This document shows, piece after piece, positions 4,850 to 30,468 of a DNA stretch of 32,000 nucleotides (within the stretch, counting starts at the first letter, position 1; each line of letters opens with the position of its first letter). The notes under the pieces were generated by a model. The model saw nothing but the letters and a program-made list of their open reading frames with translations, did not search any database and was not told where the DNA came from. Where the stretch lies: the NCBI GenBank assembly GCA_963931495.1, contig OZ007020.1, positions 750,001 through 782,000 on the forward strand. Reading direction: 5' to 3'. Position numbers and translations under genes: made by a program. Source of the DNA: an uncultured Alphaproteobacteria bacterium (lineage in GTDB: Bacteria; Pseudomonadota; Alphaproteobacteria; Rs-D84).

Positions 4850-4879
4850 AAAAGTCCCCGCCGTGGGAGATAGCGGGGA
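4848..4879 (-). terminator. Rho-independent terminator of the Cys-rich gene pair
   Basis: Stem tccccgc (4855-4861) pairs with gcgggga (4873-4879) around an 11-nt loop. On the minus strand a T-run (plus A-run 4848-4853) follows the stem. The site lies between convergent genes. Confidence 0.6.
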
Positions 4880-4897: not shown

Positions 4898-5539
4898 TTA
4901 ATTTTGATAATACGCGGCCCCGGTACACGACCAAGATCCGGTACTGTCACTGCCGGTCAGACCGGTAACATAGCATGATGTGATTGATTCTGCCCCAGAA
5001 CCAGATGTTGTTCCGCCACCACTGCATTGGGTACAGCCGGTGTAATTGCCAATCATTTGCATCGCTGGTGGCGTTCCCCACCAACCTTTGGCACAACGAT
5101 ATGAAGATTTTTTGGAACATGTGCATGTTGACGTATTGCATGTCGCATCAGTAACATATTCGTATCCTGTGGCGGGCGATGTCACCGAATCAAGACAATT
5201 ATCACATGTGCCATCACAATCATCACCGCCACCGATATCACCACCCTGTTTTACACAGTCGTAATATGTCCCCGTATTGGCACACGGTGATACCAACTGT
5301 ACTGTTTTCCGTGTTCGGGTGTATCCGCTGTTGCATGTGGTACATGATTCAATTTTGTTATTCGTGCTGCCGCCCCAACAACTGACTGTTTTTGTTTTGC
5401 AATTCAAAACACGTACCATCGGCGTTGTTGTATCCCCTGTTTGACAGGCCTGGTCTGAACATGCCATACCCAACGCCCACGCATTTGATGTCAGCGCACC
5501 CCCGCAAATAATTGTTAAAAATATTGTGAACTTTTTCAT
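4898..5539 (-). CDS. secreted cysteine-rich protein, paralog A (function unknown)
   Basis: The signal peptide is MKKFTIFLTIICGGALTSNAWA. The mature part contains about 19 Cys. It aligns by motif with the upstream gene: TC.SGY.R, DDCDGTCD.C, TGY.Y...ATCNT..C.C, WGTP, GCT.C, SIT.CY and GSDS.GSW. Confidence 0.75.
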   Translation of the reverse strand: MKKFTIFLTIICGGALTSNAWALGMACSDQACQTGDTTTPMVRVLNCKTKTVSCWGGSTNNKIESCTTCNSGYTRTRKTVQLVSPCANTGTYYDCVKQGGDIGGGDDCDGTCDNCLDSVTSPATGYEYVTDATCNTSTCTCSKKSSYRCAKGWWGTPPAMQMIGNYTGCTQCSGGGTTSGSGAESITSCYVTGLTGSDSTGSWSCTGAAYYQN

Positions 5540-5560
5540 ATTCTGATTTTTTCCCCCCCA

Positions 5561-6325
5561 TCAATAGAAACAATTTCCGCCTTCAATCACCCACGACCCG
5601 GAACTGTCACTGCCAACGGTTCCATTGGGTAAATAGCATGCAGTAATTGACGTACTGCCCGCCATACAGCGCGCGGTATCAGGGGCGCACCGTGTACACC
5701 CAGATGTCAGTGATACATTCGGGGTTCCCCAATAATTTGGGGCACACTGTGTGTGCCTGTCTTTGGTGCATTCACATAAATCCGTGTTACATGTTGCAAC
5801 GGTGCGGTATTGATATCCTGTATTGTATGTTTGCCACGGTGTACTGGTACAATCGTCGCACGTGCCATCACAGTCATCTGGCGCGCCTGGATATTTGCAA
5901 TCGGTATATGAAACCGTGTTTGTACATTCGCCATTCAGTTTTATTGTTCGTGTTACGCGTTCGTAACCCGATTTGCACGTATTACATGTCGCAACCGCCG
6001 CACTGGTTGTTGCCAGATTTTGGCCATAGCATGTCATGCTGGACGCCATGCAATTACGCAATATATTATCAGGCACAACTTCGTCAGAACAGCCCCGGGG
6101 TTGGCATACCTGGCCTGTTGTACCACCGCCACCAACACCACCGCTGCCACCGCCGGGATTTGTGGGGTCGGTGCCACTGCCACCTTCGTTGCCGCCAACG
6201 TCACCACCAGATGAACTGATTGCATATGCAGTATCAATATGCGCCACAGTGCATAAAAGTGCGGTAATGCATACCAATGAAATTAATGCACGCGCCGAAT
6301 CTAAACCTCCGTTTAGATTCGGCAA
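5561..6325 (-). CDS. secreted cysteine-rich protein, paralog B (function unknown); start codon uncertain
   Basis: A hydrophobic signal-like segment ends in TAYA. A Gly-rich linker follows, then about 20 Cys with the same motif order as paralog A. The track start TTG 6325 lies inside the conserved upstream element. An alternative in-frame TTG lies at 6277. Confidence 0.7.
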   Translation of the reverse strand: MPNLNGGLDSARALISLVCITALLCTVAHIDTAYAISSSGGDVGGNEGGSGTDPTNPGGGSGGVGGGGTTGQVCQPRGCSDEVVPDNILRNCMASSMTCYGQNLATTSAAVATCNTCKSGYERVTRTIKLNGECTNTVSYTDCKYPGAPDDCDGTCDDCTSTPWQTYNTGYQYRTVATCNTDLCECTKDRHTQCAPNYWGTPNVSLTSGCTRCAPDTARCMAGSTSITACYLPNGTVGSDSSGSWVIEGGNCFY

Positions 6326-6422
6326 AATACGAGAGATAAAAAATGCAGAAATCTGGGATTTTTACAAAAATAAAAACCGCCGCTGTAAACGGAGGTTTAG
6401 ATTCGGCATAAATATTACACCC
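6294..6422 (-). repeat. conserved ~129-bp element, copy 1, 5' of the Cys-rich operon (candidate regulatory switch or structured leader)
   Basis: 6294-6314 (gccgaatctaaacctccgttt) is the perfect reverse complement of 6387-6407. A local 13-bp palindrome spans 6294-6306 and 6311-6323. The direct repeat gtttagattcggc occurs at 6311 and 6395. By hand alignment the element shows about 16 differences in ~129 positions against 18865-18992. Confidence 0.8.
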
Positions 6423-6459
6423 AAAATAGTAATATATTTATTGCATTCGCGTCAATAAA

Positions 6460-17658: not shown

Positions 17659-18273
17659 ATGAAACGTTATTTATTAATCACAATATGTACAATCATTTTA
17701 CCAACACTGGCATATGCAGAGGATAGTTATAATGCGCGCGATACGTATGTTGGGGTGCGTGTACACAAAAACGACAATATTGCATTTATGATGGAACCAG
17801 ATAACGGCGATGGTGTGACATTGCGCGATGACGGATTTGGTGTCGGATTAACAATCGGAAACAGACTGACCCAGAACGTAAAAATTGAATTTGAAACCGC
17901 ATATACAAATGGCAAAGATTCTGATGTCGGAAACGATTTTGAATTTCATGTATGGTCAAATATGTTGAACATGTATGTTTATCAACAATTTGGTGGCGCA
18001 GTTGAACCATATATTGGGTTCGGTATCGGGGTATCTGGATTGTGGGGTAAATCACATGGGCTGTACGATTTATCCGATGCAACCGCAGATTTGTCGTGGT
18101 CATTAATGCTGGGGGTGAACTTTGCATTAAATGACTATGTTGACCTGAACCTGGGACTGAAATACCAGAACTATGGCGATATGGATATGACGAATGACGC
18201 CGGATATCATAACTATACCGAAATTGACGCCACAGAAATATATATTGGTGCCGCGTACAAGTTCGGTTTATGA
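17659..18273 (+). CDS. small outer-membrane beta-barrel protein (Omp25/31- or OmpW-like)
   Basis: The signal peptide ends in LAYA. The sequence has alternating beta-strand character and ends IGAAYKFGL. Confidence 0.6.
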   Translation: MKRYLLITICTIILPTLAYAEDSYNARDTYVGVRVHKNDNIAFMMEPDNGDGVTLRDDGFGVGLTIGNRLTQNVKIEFETAYTNGKDSDVGNDFEFHVWSNMLNMYVYQQFGGAVEPYIGFGIGVSGLWGKSHGLYDLSDATADLSWSLMLGVNFALNDYVDLNLGLKYQNYGDMDMTNDAGYHNYTEIDATEIYIGAAYKFGL

Positions 18274-18855
18274 ACTCATATCATAATTACACTGTTGTAC
18301 CCATTCACCACTGCCGGTGCTGTCTGAAAATTCGGTACCAACCGCGATATAACAGCTGGTAATAAAAGCATTTCTACCATGGATGCTGGTGGTTGTTTCA
18401 CCGTTTGGCCCCGCCGGACATTGTTGACATGATGGTCTGGAACCATAATATCCCGCGTCACAGTATGCGAGGACCACACTCCCCCTGCACGGTTCGCAAC
18501 AAAGCAATGAATATTGTGTACAATTACCGTTTGAATCAGTACACACTTGACACAATTGTCCGGGTGGCGGGGTTATTGCTGTTCCGCCACCATCATCGCC
18601 ATCGTCACCATCGTCGCCGCCATCACCCGAACCTTCGCCACCACCCTGGTCCACATCTTTACAATACGTTGAGCATAATTGTACACTGGGCGCACAACAA
18701 ACAGTGCCTGATGCAACCATACTGATACACGCGACTTGACCGGCTGGGCAATTCTGGCCAGATTCTGCACCGCCCAGTGCATAAGACGCGTTTGGTGTAA
18801 TCAAATTAACAAATACACAACCGACAAATAATAATTTATTAAAATATTTCCACAC
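18268..18855 (-). CDS. secreted cysteine-rich protein, paralog C (function unknown)
   Basis: The GTG start gives the signal peptide MWKYFNKLLFVGCVFVNLITPNASYA. The mature part has about 17 Cys and a G/D linker. The C-terminal module CDAGYYG...CQQCP...ITSCY...SDSTGSGEW matches the C-termini of paralogs A and B. Confidence 0.7.
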   Translation of the reverse strand: MWKYFNKLLFVGCVFVNLITPNASYALGGAESGQNCPAGQVACISMVASGTVCCAPSVQLCSTYCKDVDQGGGEGSGDGGDDGDDGDDGGGTAITPPPGQLCQVCTDSNGNCTQYSLLCCEPCRGSVVLAYCDAGYYGSRPSCQQCPAGPNGETTTSIHGRNAFITSCYIAVGTEFSDSTGSGEWVQQCNYDMSS

Positions 18856-18866
18856 AACAGTTGCAT

Positions 18867-18992
18867 CTGAATCTAAACCACGTTTAGATTAGGCAAAAAA
18901 CGGGATATAAAAAATGCAGAATTCTGGGATTTTTACAAAAATAAAAACCGCCATTATAAACGGTGGTTTAGATTAGGCATAATATCACACCC
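18867..18992 (-). repeat. conserved ~129-bp element, copy 2, 5' of Cys-rich paralog C
   Basis: The architecture matches 6294-6422. A local palindrome spans 18870-18878 and 18882-18890. The direct repeat gtttagattaggc occurs at 18882 and 18966, again 84 bp apart. The inner inverted repeat matches 16 of 17 positions. The element ends 11 nt before the GTG start. Confidence 0.8.
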
Positions 18993-27960: not shown

Positions 27961-28314
27961 TTATATTATACCGCGAATCCAGCGAATTTTGTGCCCTGTA
28001 ACCACAATTGCGTCAAAGCGTGCATCCCCATTCCAATGTGTGCGCGCAATATAAGTTTCAGCCGCACGACGCAAACGCACAGACTGGGCCGGCGTAATCG
28101 CATCCAGTCCAGTGATAACATCATGACGATATTTTACTTCTATGAACAACAACAGATTTTTACGCTTTGCAATTATGTCAATTTCGGCACGTCCAGTATT
28201 TCGGCCGGTTGTATATCGCCGATTTACAATAAGGAATCCATGTATACGCAAATACATCCGCGCAATAAATTCGGCCCACAAGCCTGATTTATAAGAATTA
28301 AATTCCTGTGTCAT
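27961..28314 (-). CDS. yraN: YraN family (UPF0102) predicted endonuclease
   Basis: The pattern GLWAE..A..YL...G..I..RRY....GEIDIIA......L.F.EVK.R is present here as RAEIDIIAKRKNLLLFIEVKYR. The start overlaps the upstream stop as TAATG. Confidence 0.8.
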   Translation of the reverse strand: MTQEFNSYKSGLWAEFIARMYLRIHGFLIVNRRYTTGRNTGRAEIDIIAKRKNLLLFIEVKYRHDVITGLDAITPAQSVRLRRAAETYIARTHWNGDARFDAIVVTGHKIRWIRGII

Positions 28315-29099
28315 TAAAATGCGTATGGTTTGGCCTGGAAATTTTCACGTGCCGCCTGGATATTCTTGGCAACATCAGACGAATACCGACCCATGTCAAC
28401 CAAATCCAATGAACCATAATACGCCGTCATCATTGGGTCATATGCATTATTCGTTGATATCCATTTGTCTGTACCAGAATTTGGCGCACCGTATTTATCC
28501 AAGACACCTTGCCAAAATGCCAAAATTTTCTTTTCGCGCTGGTCAGCAAATTTTTCATTATCGCCTTCTATATCATTAACATCATTGTTATACAGAACAC
28601 GCCATACGACGTTATCACTGGCATTACTGGTAAAATACACAACGATTGTTTCACCGGTTCTTTCGCGTACCAAGTGTAATTCGGACGCATACATCAGTCC
28701 CCTGTCCCGCGCCAACGTATTAATGCATTGTTCCAGTTCATCTGGGGCGACAATACCCTGCTGGCGACACTCGTAATCCAGATTATATTTCCATTCTTTT
28801 TGTATTGAATAAATAATACTGTCTTTTTCACGCGGGCTGTATAATCCCTTGGCCTTAAAGAACAGTGTTTGAATGTCTTCAAACGACGCCCCCAGCATAA
28901 TCCCAGCAATATCAAAATTGCTGACTGTTATTGGCTGGGCCCCGATATTCAAACTGACCGTTTCAGCAGATAAATCACCCGTCCCGCCGTCAGTAATGGC
29001 AAAATTACTGAAATCAAAATCATCTGTGGCCGCATGTGCCCCAAACACACCCCCAGAACAAAATATTAACGCGACAAAAATTTTATATATTTGCTTCAT
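28314..29099 (-). CDS. secreted or periplasmic protein, function unknown
   Basis: The signal peptide is MKQIYKIFVALIFCSGGVFGAHA. The 261-aa product matches no motif I recognise and ends in PYAF. It is translationally coupled to genes on both sides. Confidence 0.55.
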   Translation of the reverse strand: MKQIYKIFVALIFCSGGVFGAHAATDDFDFSNFAITDGGTGDLSAETVSLNIGAQPITVSNFDIAGIMLGASFEDIQTLFFKAKGLYSPREKDSIIYSIQKEWKYNLDYECRQQGIVAPDELEQCINTLARDRGLMYASELHLVRERTGETIVVYFTSNASDNVVWRVLYNNDVNDIEGDNEKFADQREKKILAFWQGVLDKYGAPNSGTDKWISTNNAYDPMMTAYYGSLDLVDMGRYSSDVAKNIQAARENFQAKPYAF

Positions 29100-29104
29100 G
29101 TGTC

Positions 29105-29746
29105 TCAGCCTTGAATAATCTCGTTAACACGAAAATGAAAGACAGTGCACGGATCACCCCCGTTTTCAAGATAATCATGCAAAGCCTGAATGTCTATGTT
29201 TGATAACATACGCGGTTCATATGTTATATCCATAAACATTGTTCCACGTGATTTTTGCGGAATAACGCCGAAATTATTCGGGCCATTCCATGTCGTTAAT
29301 TCATAATTTACAATCCAATACGTACTGTTAACCGGACGCGTAACCCGATCAATAACACGCACAGTACGGAATGCCCTGTTCCCCGCCATTTCTTGGATTG
29401 TGCGCGCTTCGCCATTCAGCCAACTGTCAAATACCGACCGGGATGACATACGCCCCAGTGCACCATTTGCCCCCATACGACGCGCGATATTTTCAACATC
29501 TGGGGCAACATAAAAGTATTCAGTAACATATTTGCGAACCAGCAAATCCAGAAATTCCATTTCACCCATTTCTGTCGGTGTTTCGGGTGTCCCAGGACGA
29601 TGTTCTGACAAATTATTCGGTTGAAAAAAGTATGGTATAATACGCTGGGACGACGTCGCATCATATATTGCCCCAGCCAAATATATCGCCCCACCAGACA
29701 TGGCGACCAATATCAATCCTAATAAAAACAATAATATTTTTTTCAT
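29105..29746 (-). CDS. bitopic membrane protein, VirB8-like (second of a tandem pair)
   Basis: An N-terminal TM segment is followed by SQRIIPYFF, which parallels SQRIDPFIV in the upstream paralog. The periplasmic domain has a VirB8/NTF2-like block order (..KYVTEYFYV.., YWIVNYELTTW, ..DITYEP..). The ATGA overlap links it to the upstream gene. Confidence 0.4.
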   Translation of the reverse strand: MKKILLFLLGLILVAMSGGAIYLAGAIYDATSSQRIIPYFFQPNNLSEHRPGTPETPTEMGEMEFLDLLVRKYVTEYFYVAPDVENIARRMGANGALGRMSSRSVFDSWLNGEARTIQEMAGNRAFRTVRVIDRVTRPVNSTYWIVNYELTTWNGPNNFGVIPQKSRGTMFMDITYEPRMLSNIDIQALHDYLENGGDPCTVFHFRVNEIIQG

Positions 29747-30468
29747 TCGCTTATCTTGTACGCATTAAAATCCGCCACATAATATCCCATCGTTTGCGGA
29801 TATTTTTCCGTGTTACGTGCAATCTTGGCAAACGCAATCACAGATATTTCACCCGCCAAATTTGATTTTATCGTTGCCGTAACCCGCCATGTTCCACCAA
29901 CATCAGACACATTCCCCACCGGTTCCATATAGATTTGATTTTTATCAACAACCCATTCTTCGCCCAGCGCAACACGTTCTTGATACAGCGGCACAACATC
30001 GTATATAAAACGTGAAAACAATTCTTCCCCAGACACACAATACAGATTACATGTTTTATCAGAAAAAGAATATGGACTGGCGGTGCCACAGTCAACATCA
30101 CGTTCGCATGTTTGCCACATTGCGTCATTCACCTGGGCATCCCCAGATACAGAAAACCAATTAGCGGTAAAATTCCCCAGCACAGATTCTTGTAATGCCA
30201 TCTTGGCCGAATATTCAATCGGGCCATTGCCATGAGAATGCCCAACAACCGTCCATTGACCAGTTAATTTATCTATCTCTACAATAAATGGGTCAATCCG
30301 CTGGCTGCGTACCGCCCAGATTAAAATACCACATAAAAATATTACCAACAAAAACGTCACGCACGACGCAATGCCCATAAATCTGGACAACGCCACAGAC
30401 TTTCCCGCCGGGAATGCGGGTGTGTTAAAATCGCTTGGATAATCCAATGGCATCCCCCCCTGTGACAT
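29743..30468 (-). CDS. bitopic membrane protein, VirB8-like (first of a tandem pair)
   Basis: A ~30-aa cytoplasmic N-terminus is followed by one TM segment. Then comes IDPFIVEIDKLTGQWTVV, which matches the VirB8 hallmark EPYV(I/V)RVD..TG....VV. The C-terminal end is P.TMGYYVADFNAYK (compare NPLGFQVTSYR). The length of 241 aa is typical of VirB8. Confidence 0.55.
   Translation of the reverse strand: MSQGGMPLDYPSDFNTPAFPAGKSVALSRFMGIASCVTFLLVIFLCGILIWAVRSQRIDPFIVEIDKLTGQWTVVGHSHGNGPIEYSAKMALQESVLGNFTANWFSVSGDAQVNDAMWQTCERDVDCGTASPYSFSDKTCNLYCVSGEELFSRFIYDVVPLYQERVALGEEWVVDKNQIYMEPVGNVSDVGGTWRVTATIKSNLAGEISVIAFAKIARNTEKYPQTMGYYVADFNAYKISE

Follow-up and report, generated by a model that had tools for sequence, protein, structure and literature searches.

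A 114-bp invertible switch at a pair of genes for cysteine-rich, apparently exported proteins in an uncultured gut alphaproteobacterium

Two adjacent minus-strand genes for cysteine-rich proteins of 213 and 254 amino acids (aa) lie in a 32,000-nucleotide (nt) stretch of DNA, hereafter the window, from an uncultured alphaproteobacterium of the order Rs-D84 (assembly GCA_963931495.1, contig OZ007020.1, positions 750,001 to 782,000). The upstream gene starts within a short segment that undergoes inversion: both orientations are present in public assemblies, with matching flanks and with breakpoints in the repeats that bound the segment. It is considered fairly probable that the two genes form an operon and encode members of a large unannotated family of Sec-exported, all-beta proteins of approximately 200 aa with some 20 cysteines, that their expression is controlled by this 114-bp inversion switch, and that the products are phase-variable surface or secreted proteins. 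The comparisons establish the inversion and the family; that populations actively switch, which orientation is ON and what the proteins do are what we infer.

The switch at the pair (locus A) consists of perfect 22-nt inverted repeats (IRa and IRb) around a 70-nt core. In the comparison of locus L021 with the window, both flanks and the 114-nt segment were 100% identical, with the segment reversed, and inversion of the window core in silico reproduced the L021 leader without a mismatch. Since the TTG start of the 254-aa open reading frame (ORF) and its first residues, MPNLNGGLDS, are encoded within the invertible segment, the N-terminus of the protein depends on the orientation of the switch. 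In the window orientation the core supplies the 3' half of a terminator-like stem, a U-run and the TTG start. The flipped core supplies GAGAGA-N7-ATG and the codons MQKSGIFTKIKTAAV, and the gene then reads as 266 aa from an ATG within the inverted core, which is preceded by GAGAGATAAAAA and followed by a lysine-rich signal n-region. The flipped N-terminus, MQKSGIFTKIKTAAVNGGLDSARAL, was predicted beforehand and then found in the 266-aa forms P0214 and P0216, and the 266-aa form is called as a gene in L021. Repeats of 22 nt are probably shorter than typical assembler k-mers (an estimate), and an assembly artefact is therefore unlikely.

A second copy of the switch (locus B) precedes a third family member of 195 aa, which lies 12.5 kb from the pair on the same strand. 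The ~125-nt leader of this gene is ~90% identical to the leader of the 254-aa gene, and a promoter-like site (19032->19004) and a terminator-like site (18964->18947) were likewise predicted at locus B. This locus is inverted in L019 and L020, where the flanks are collinear and the middle 106 nt are reversed at 95% identity. The cluster of 195-aa genes has two alternative N-termini, one of them exactly as encoded by the reverse-complemented core, and P0202 is the flipped, 220-aa form of the third paralog. Loci A and B switch independently, since on a single contig locus A (L003) has the window orientation but locus B (L019) is inverted. In the strain of the window, IRb of locus B has a 1-nt deletion at its centre (GTG, compared with GGTG in L019); this puts the MPNLN start out of frame, leading to a protein of 195 aa here when its relatives are mostly of 209 aa, beginning MPNLNGGLDSDATVV. 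By analogy with a 2-bp deletion in Clostridioides difficile R8366, the deletion may lock the switch at locus B. A separate observation concerns L019 (2950-3060), in which the inverted core of locus B is a mosaic, the first ~30 nt matching the core of locus A and the rest that of locus B, which suggests exchange between both switches.

The arrangement of predicted signals at locus A suggests how the switch might operate. A fixed promoter just outside the switch would drive transcription toward the 254-aa and 213-aa genes. In the window orientation, transcripts would meet an intrinsic terminator at the IRa/core junction, and the only in-frame start would be a TTG without a ribosome-binding site inside a 13-bp hairpin, leaving the genes OFF. 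In the flipped orientation the terminator would face away and let transcripts through, and an ATG behind a purine-rich stretch, together with a lysine-rich n-region, would be joined to the same mature protein, turning the genes ON. In a cross-species alignment, the conserved -10-like block that immediately precedes IRa corresponds to TATAAT of L008 and L023; the promoter-like site outside the switch is conserved across species too, and the terminator-like element lies on the antisense strand in the flipped locus L021. Stronger terminator equivalents with different stem sequences are present in L009 and L023, for example CACCGAT-N4-ATCGGTG followed by a U-run. Ribosome-binding sites of this organism are AAGGA-like, and none precedes the TTG and GTG starts, the region upstream of the TTG being pyrimidine-rich. 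The hairpin, formed by IRb and positions 6316-6323, is a perfect palindrome that includes the G of the TTG start (-21.7 kcal/mol). The gene in L008 starts downstream of the switch, at an ATG with a ribosome-binding site of its own. Because of the sense-strand terminator, the lack of a ribosome-binding site at the TTG and the burial of that codon in the hairpin, the window orientation is judged, with moderate confidence, to be the probable OFF state, and the flipped orientation is probably ON.

Several points count against this polarity. Consensus matching is the sole basis on which the promoter, the start of transcription and the terminator were predicted, the terminator stem of locus A is weak (-11.7 kcal/mol, z=-2.4), and the majority of assemblies show the window orientation, which would also fit the window orientation being ON. 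The main rival explanation holds that the same switch has the opposite logic, with the window orientation ON, for example by way of a near-leaderless TTG transcript or of a promoter in the core; the flipped orientation would be either OFF or yield a differently targeted precursor. Besides the predominance of the window orientation, -35-like TTGTAA/TTGAAA sequences after the U-run in several species would suit such a scheme, as would the location of the promoter inside the invertible segment of classical invertons (PMC2784873). However, neither orientation of the core has a predicted promoter-like site, other species also keep the sense-strand terminator, MQK(S/T)-type ATG starts recur in distant members in the flipped form, and the TTG, as described, has no ribosome-binding site and sits in a strong hairpin; the opposite polarity is regarded as unlikely.

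The motif TCCCAGATTTCTGCAT (6351-6366 and equivalents, alignment A6) at the centre of the invertible core is conserved across species and takes the form of a perfect palindrome, TCCCAGATTTCTGGGA, in L008. A protein may bind, or the DNA may bend, at this motif, which the unusually short 70-nt core might need. A sequence related to the 13-bp palindrome lies 84 nt upstream of the palindrome. A 15-codon mini-ORF, MPNLNLRLQRRFLFL followed by a stop, was also seen at 6362-6409 (-), with its ATG fused to IRa; its ATG is not conserved in P0018-type loci. When flipped, the mini-ORF becomes MPNLNLRLDSAKYER, with its stop 3 nt ahead of the main ATG, which makes translational coupling of the two possible. 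Early readings of the 5' palindrome, as a ribosome-binding site in a hairpin loop, as a leader-peptide attenuator or kissing-loop RNA, or as a repeat like repetitive extragenic palindromes or miniature inverted-repeat transposable elements (REP/MITE-like), were dropped once both orientations had been found. Loop covariation was not kept in strain L005, and the long-range helix in the RNA fold is a product of the inverted repeats.

The two genes downstream of switch A are separated by 21 nt (5540-5560), and their products are 36% identical over 185 columns (BLASTP, E=4e-27), which bears out a first-pass annotation of the sequence that had described them as tandem secreted paralogs. Its count of about 19-20 mature cysteines was accurate (19 and 20, or 9.9% and 9.1% of residues, in the 213-aa and 254-aa proteins, respectively, compared with 0.97% in 24 other window ORFs), and the Gly/Asp low-complexity linkers that it reported are present. 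The ordered motifs that it had listed as common to both proteins are all there, save that the first reads SCTTC, and not TC(N/T)TC, in the 213-aa protein. Each protein has three CxxC motifs. By inspection, the N-termini of the pair have a hydrophobic core ending AWA before L and AYA before I, and n-, h- and c-regions with AXA-type cleavage ends were recognised in three window members (MKKFTIFLTIICGGALTSNAWA before L, ...LISLVCITALLCTVAHIDTAYA before I and MWKYFNKLLFVGCVFVNLITPNASYA before L); ends of this type are also common to the relatives listed. From such N-termini, the pair proteins are predicted to be Sec-exported substrates of signal peptidase I. Their C-termini end CFY or YYQN, without a hydrophobic segment.

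The 213-aa gene has a G-rich ribosome-binding site, GGGGGGGAAAAAATCAGAAT-ATG, is present on 34 contigs in public data and is matched by the family profile at E=1.5e-68. The pair is probably one operon, co-transcribed from the switch, because no terminator was predicted between the genes and one was predicted after the 213-aa gene. The exact 254-aa sequence is not present in a collection of 15 billion proteins, and public gene callers omit this ORF in the window orientation, calling a gene only in the flipped form. Pseudogene status was rejected, since the ORF is intact in all strains compared (6/6 other assemblies, with every cysteine conserved) and is called by gene callers when flipped. Public annotation has a 136-aa gene at 6036-6458 (+), a poly-Pro shadow ORF antisense to the Gly-rich linker, which spans the switch; this call is probably spurious, as it vanishes in L021. 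Standard gene callers would thus overlook the gene when the switch stands one way and report a spurious antisense ORF in its place. Among 6-7 near-identical strains, the ratio of non-synonymous to synonymous polymorphism (pN/pS) was 0.92 for the 254-aa gene, with all cysteines kept, and 0.00-0.26 for neighbouring genes, numbers of changes being small; in the 213-aa gene only synonymous changes were seen among 6 strains. The contrast in pN/pS fits an exposed, diversifying product beside a conserved partner.

Table 1. Coordinates of the features of the window, and modules of the protein family to which the pair belongs.
Feature	Position in window	Strand	Details
Terminator-like site just 3' of 213-aa gene	4855..4870	-	terminator prediction
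213-aa Cys-rich gene	4898..5539	-	ORF, ATG start; downstream member of pair
254-aa Cys-rich paralog	5561..6325	-	ORF, TTG start in window orientation
Inverted repeat IRb, locus A	6294..6315	-	TAAACGGAGGTTTAGATTCGGC; repeat comparison
Invertible core, 70 nt, locus A	6316..6385	-	in-silico inversion
Inverted repeat IRa, locus A	6386..6407	-	GCCGAATCTAAACCTCCGTTTA; promoter-proximal switch boundary
Terminator-like stem-loop and U-run at IRa/core junction	6366..6392	-	stem 6392->6377, then TTTTTATTTT; on gene strand only in window orientation
Fixed promoter-like region outside switch	6414..6455	-	TTGACG-18-TACTAT (6455-6426); -10-like TGTAAT (6419-6414)
Third family member, 195 aa	18268..18855	-	GTG start; same C-terminal module, different Cys-rich N-terminal part
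Second switch copy, locus B	18866..18978	-	IRa 18978-18957, core 18956-18887, IRb 18886-18866
Family module 1			N-terminal part; C-x4-C ... NC ... C-Y
Family module 2			CxxCxSGYxRT...C...TYYxC unit; duplicated in some members
Family module 3			CDGTCDNC...W...ATCNTxTCxC unit
Family module 4			C-terminal unit RCAAGYYG...GCTxCPxxGTSxAGxxxITxCYIPAGT, then SDSTG...CYY

The proteins belong to a large family that has escaped annotation. The window proteins had no match in Pfam or NCBIfam at E<=10, and no family matching them was found in PHROGs or PADLOC, in agreement with the first-pass annotation, which could not place them in any known bacterial family; for want of a match in PHROGs and PADLOC, a phage or defence origin was rejected. 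An Rfam scan of the whole window also found no family. An exhaustive profile search gave 1,380 representatives (clusters at 50% identity) at E<=1e-3 and 600 at E<=1e-10; a word-indexed search recovered few relatives. Nearly all of 150 listed matches are 160-330 aa in length, and in the sequences retrieved the N-termini are signal-like and the median number of cysteines is 20. Relatives come from metagenome-assembled genomes labelled Alphaproteobacteria, 'uncultured Rickettsiales' or Candidatus Enterousia, obtained from the guts of human, ruminant, roe-deer and termite. There is one exception among related loci, a weak 33-residue match labelled Bacteroides fragilis. As far as they are named, then, family members appear restricted to gut Alphaproteobacteria whose genomes are small, namely Ca. 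Enterousia, the order Rs-D84 and their relatives. Over the 1,700 nt compared, no difference separates the window from a contig in an ENA metagenome assembly. The gut lineage Ca. Enterousia, of the order Rs-D84, has genomes smaller than 1 Mb, is without a tricarboxylic acid (TCA) cycle or respiratory chain, lacks most biosynthesis and may rely on a partner organism (PMC12306168).

The family is modular, with variable Cys-rich N-terminal parts and a conserved C-terminal unit of ~65 residues (Table 1). This unit is the sole part that the third window paralog has in common with the pair; it also stands alone in proteins of ~90 aa and occurs in tandem copies in P0158, P0126 and P0146. In P0150 (287 aa), the usual N-terminal module is replaced by a SapB_2 saposin-like domain (26.3 bits, cutoff 21), which hints at a lipid- or membrane-active head upon a common stalk. 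An AlphaFold model of the 213-aa protein, from an alignment of 141 sequences, is all beta (predicted local distance difference test score 85.7), with two confident blocks and the Gly/Asp linker between them. At least four paralogs lie within ~21 kb of the 0.96-Mb genome, the fourth, of 177 aa (E=4.6e-19), having been seen at L001 17437-17970, ~2 kb beyond the start of the window. The first-pass annotation had missed both the paralog at 18268-18855 and the invertible switch at the 5' end of the pair. Cargo at the switch may also vary. L022/L024 and L023 agree exactly in the switch and its upstream flank but differ in the genes attached to it, namely a 294-aa family gene in L023, and genes for a 149-aa and a 253-aa protein of another Cys-containing family (…GYCWCKMLSPAVSKWV…) in L022/L024; the next gene after the cargo is the same in L023 and L024. 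Such differing cargo at a conserved switch looks like cassette replacement. Elsewhere in the window, a VirB8-like protein (29743-30468, E=3.2e-6) lies beside two ORFs without a family match (28314-30468 (-)), and this region may be part of a type IV secretion cluster.

The likeness of the C-terminal module to ephrin-receptor-like repeats, which the first-pass annotation had put forward, found partial support in the family and none in the window proteins themselves. With PF07699 (Ephrin_rec_like/GCC2_GCC3), there was no match at E<=10 for the pair, and none for the third paralog or the family consensus. PF07699 is the Pfam family matched by most members, though these were 4/141 (best E=2.5e-5), and the relative P0146 lies above its gathering cutoff (27.7 vs 23.1 bits). 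The best match for the C-terminal region of P0146 was to ephrin-receptor-like repeats in Mst1, a mastigoneme protein of Chlamydomonas (E=2.7e-7); TNFR members and, weakly, EphA4 and R-spondin came next. Alignment of the family C-terminal unit (A5) with the Mst1 repeats by hhalign gave 89% probability (E=2.4e-6) over 35 columns, with the cysteine framework in register. The framework C..G(Y/W)(Y/W)G...C..CP..G.S..G...C is common to this unit and to PF07699 repeats such as those of Mst1 (8tx1), and also to TNFR cysteine-rich domains. However, the window proteins carry one divergent unit each, below all Pfam and PDB sequence thresholds, and the unit is joined to bacterial-specific modules (CxxCxSGYxRT...TYYxC; CDGTCDNC...ATCNTxTCxC) and to an SDSTG...CYY tail. 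By sequence, the window proteins had no match among solved structures; a full-length family profile found nothing among PDB sequences, and a profile of the C-terminal unit found there no ephrin-like protein, only chance matches (e.g. Fab, zinc fingers). Foldseek searches of PDB, with a mediocre and then a good model, gave no significant match, the top non-significant ones being TNFR-type domains. Taken together, these data partly support the view that the C-terminal unit is a divergent ephrin-receptor-like/TNFR-type cysteine repeat, the likeness being apparently real but distant and limited to one unit.

Such a likeness raises the speculation that the proteins are host-mimicking effectors acquired from eukaryotes, whose ephrin-receptor-like repeats would engage host receptors, and the gut habitat of the organism and the relationship of the module to the cysteine repeats of PF07699, Mst1, TNFR and Eph are compatible with this. 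Yet the window proteins reach no eukaryotic family, and a search with the repeat unit for eukaryotic multi-repeat homologs, possibly limited by its word index, gave short bacterial proteins only. The family is, moreover, large and diversified within one bacterial lineage, pointing to long residence there. The likeness does not in itself show a eukaryotic origin, and none of the homologs recovered is eukaryotic. The first-pass annotation had called the proteins eukaryote-like and plausible host-interaction or surface factors; acquisition from eukaryotes for mimicry of the host is improbable, nothing indicating a eukaryotic source for a family that is bacterial as far as its members are named. 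The same annotation's comparison with furin-like and VSP-type repeats did not survive, no match to a furin-like family or to PF03302 (Giardia VSP) being found in Pfam for the window proteins or the 141 members. In Giardia, an anaerobic gut organism, a large and variably expressed gene family encodes the variant-specific surface proteins (VSPs), which are rich in cysteine and of the CXXC type; their control is post-transcriptional, and they have a C-terminal membrane anchor with a CRGKA tail. The window proteins differ from them in lacking a PF03302 match, a C-terminal anchor and a CRGKA tail, and in being controlled by DNA inversion.

In the reading preferred here, the pair would be phase-variable exposed or secreted proteins serving contact with host or partner cells, or evasion of immunity or phages. 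This role is proposed because of the apparent export, the Cys-rich scaffold, the diversity of the family in a narrow lineage and the control of individual genes by inversion. Some observations tell against it. Neither a lipobox nor a membrane anchor nor any known sorting signal is present in the pair proteins, and exposure at the surface is deduced; the 213-aa partner is without amino-acid variation, unlike a diversifying antigen; and the formation of ~10 disulfides in an anaerobe without respiratory chains (PMC12306168) is unexplained. Furthermore, the comparison covered assemblies, and the coexistence of both orientations in one population is presumed. The window has no recognised recombinase gene, and searches of ~298 kb of fetched loci with Hin, XerD and FimB as queries did not recover one.

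The last two points would also suit the explanation that the orientations are fixed strain differences, left by rare past inversions at a hairpin-forming repeat with no active switch, as would the mismatched repeat centres of some strains and the 1-nt deletion at locus B. By contrast, the identity of the locus A flanks and inverted segment argues for a recent event, the states of loci A and B on one contig are independent of each other, each form was met in more than one sample, and several species conserve this arrangement down to its precise 22-nt repeats, all of which make fixed differences very unlikely. As to a possible invertase, L023 (4519-8385) encodes a 198-aa serine recombinase (Resolvase+HTH_7), a 542-aa large serine recombinase and a C-5 cytosine methylase, 3-7 kb downstream of the switch-controlled family gene. 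The 198-aa protein, 5.3 kb downstream of the L023 switch, lies inside a probable mobile island, and it could be the invertase or just a gene of that island, and is a lead only.

It is also highly doubtful that the cysteines bind metals or act in periplasmic redox reactions rather than forming a disulfide scaffold. In favour of such a role, the lineage is anaerobic and without respiratory chains (PMC12306168), each protein has three CxxC motifs and no Dsb gene was seen in the window. Against it, the cysteines are conserved as in a scaffold, without His or Asp partners, the modelled all-beta hairpin stack resembles disulfide-laddered ectodomains, with TNFR domains as the top (non-significant) fold matches, and phase variation, including DNA inversion in gut bacteria, typically governs exposed surface structures (PMC11892184).

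The proposed logic of the switch is closest to that of cwpV in C. difficile (Emerson et al. 2009, PMC2784873), in which the promoter is outside the invertible region and, in the OFF state, a terminator forms at the left-repeat/core junction. In both systems, a promoter (here a promoter-like site) lies upstream of the invertible region, a stem-loop with poly-U (here predicted) occurs at this junction in one orientation only, and the repeats are ~21-22 nt; cwpV likewise controls a surface protein of a gut bacterium, and the small deletion without inversion in strain R8366 may be compared with the 1-nt IRb deletion at locus B. In contrast, the core is 70 nt here and 195 nt in cwpV, the window switch overlaps the coding start and swaps the start codon and signal n-region when the cwpV invertible region has no ORF, several switch loci are present per genome, the host is an alphaproteobacterium, and in C. 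difficile the tyrosine recombinase RecV acts on the switch. The mpl (P35) family of Mycoplasma penetrans (Horino et al. 2003, as described in PMC2268961) is similar in that an exported multigene family is distributed over several loci of a reduced genome, each gene having its own small adjacent invertible element. The mpl products are lipoproteins and the promoter is in the invertible element, whereas here there is no lipobox, the promoter is apparently outside and the terminator is inverted. Gut invertons (PMC10028968; PMC11892184) also have short inverted repeats and a flipping segment beside or overlapping cell-surface genes, and in the terms of PMC10028968 the window switch is a 'partial intergenic' inverton; it differs in being 114 bp in total and in recoding only the N-terminal end of a signal peptide. 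In the literature searched, no such switches were reported for Rs-D84, Ca. Enterousia or this Cys-rich family. The system is known in kind, as phase-variable exported proteins with a cwpV-like switch, and new in its lineage, its protein family and the details of the switch, adding a compact type in which terminator flipping would be paired with start-codon swapping.

A broader and more tentative possibility is that Rs-D84 bacteria run a system of antigenic or adhesive variation, in which a disulfide-rich family combines a constant ephrin-like stalk or anchor unit with interchangeable heads, and 114-bp switches toggle single genes. The heads would be Cys-rich modules, saposin-like domains or unrelated cassettes, each switch would flip a terminator while swapping the start codon and signal n-region, and the cargo downstream of a switch could be exchanged between strains. 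If true, this would be a bacterial counterpart of the variant surface protein systems of protozoa. Rs-D84/Ca. Enterousia are widespread uncultured gut bacteria. A switch-controlled, fast-diversifying exported family is the most obvious candidate for the interface of Rs-D84 with other cells, and it provides concrete targets for read-level surveys of phase variation, for antibodies and for localisation.

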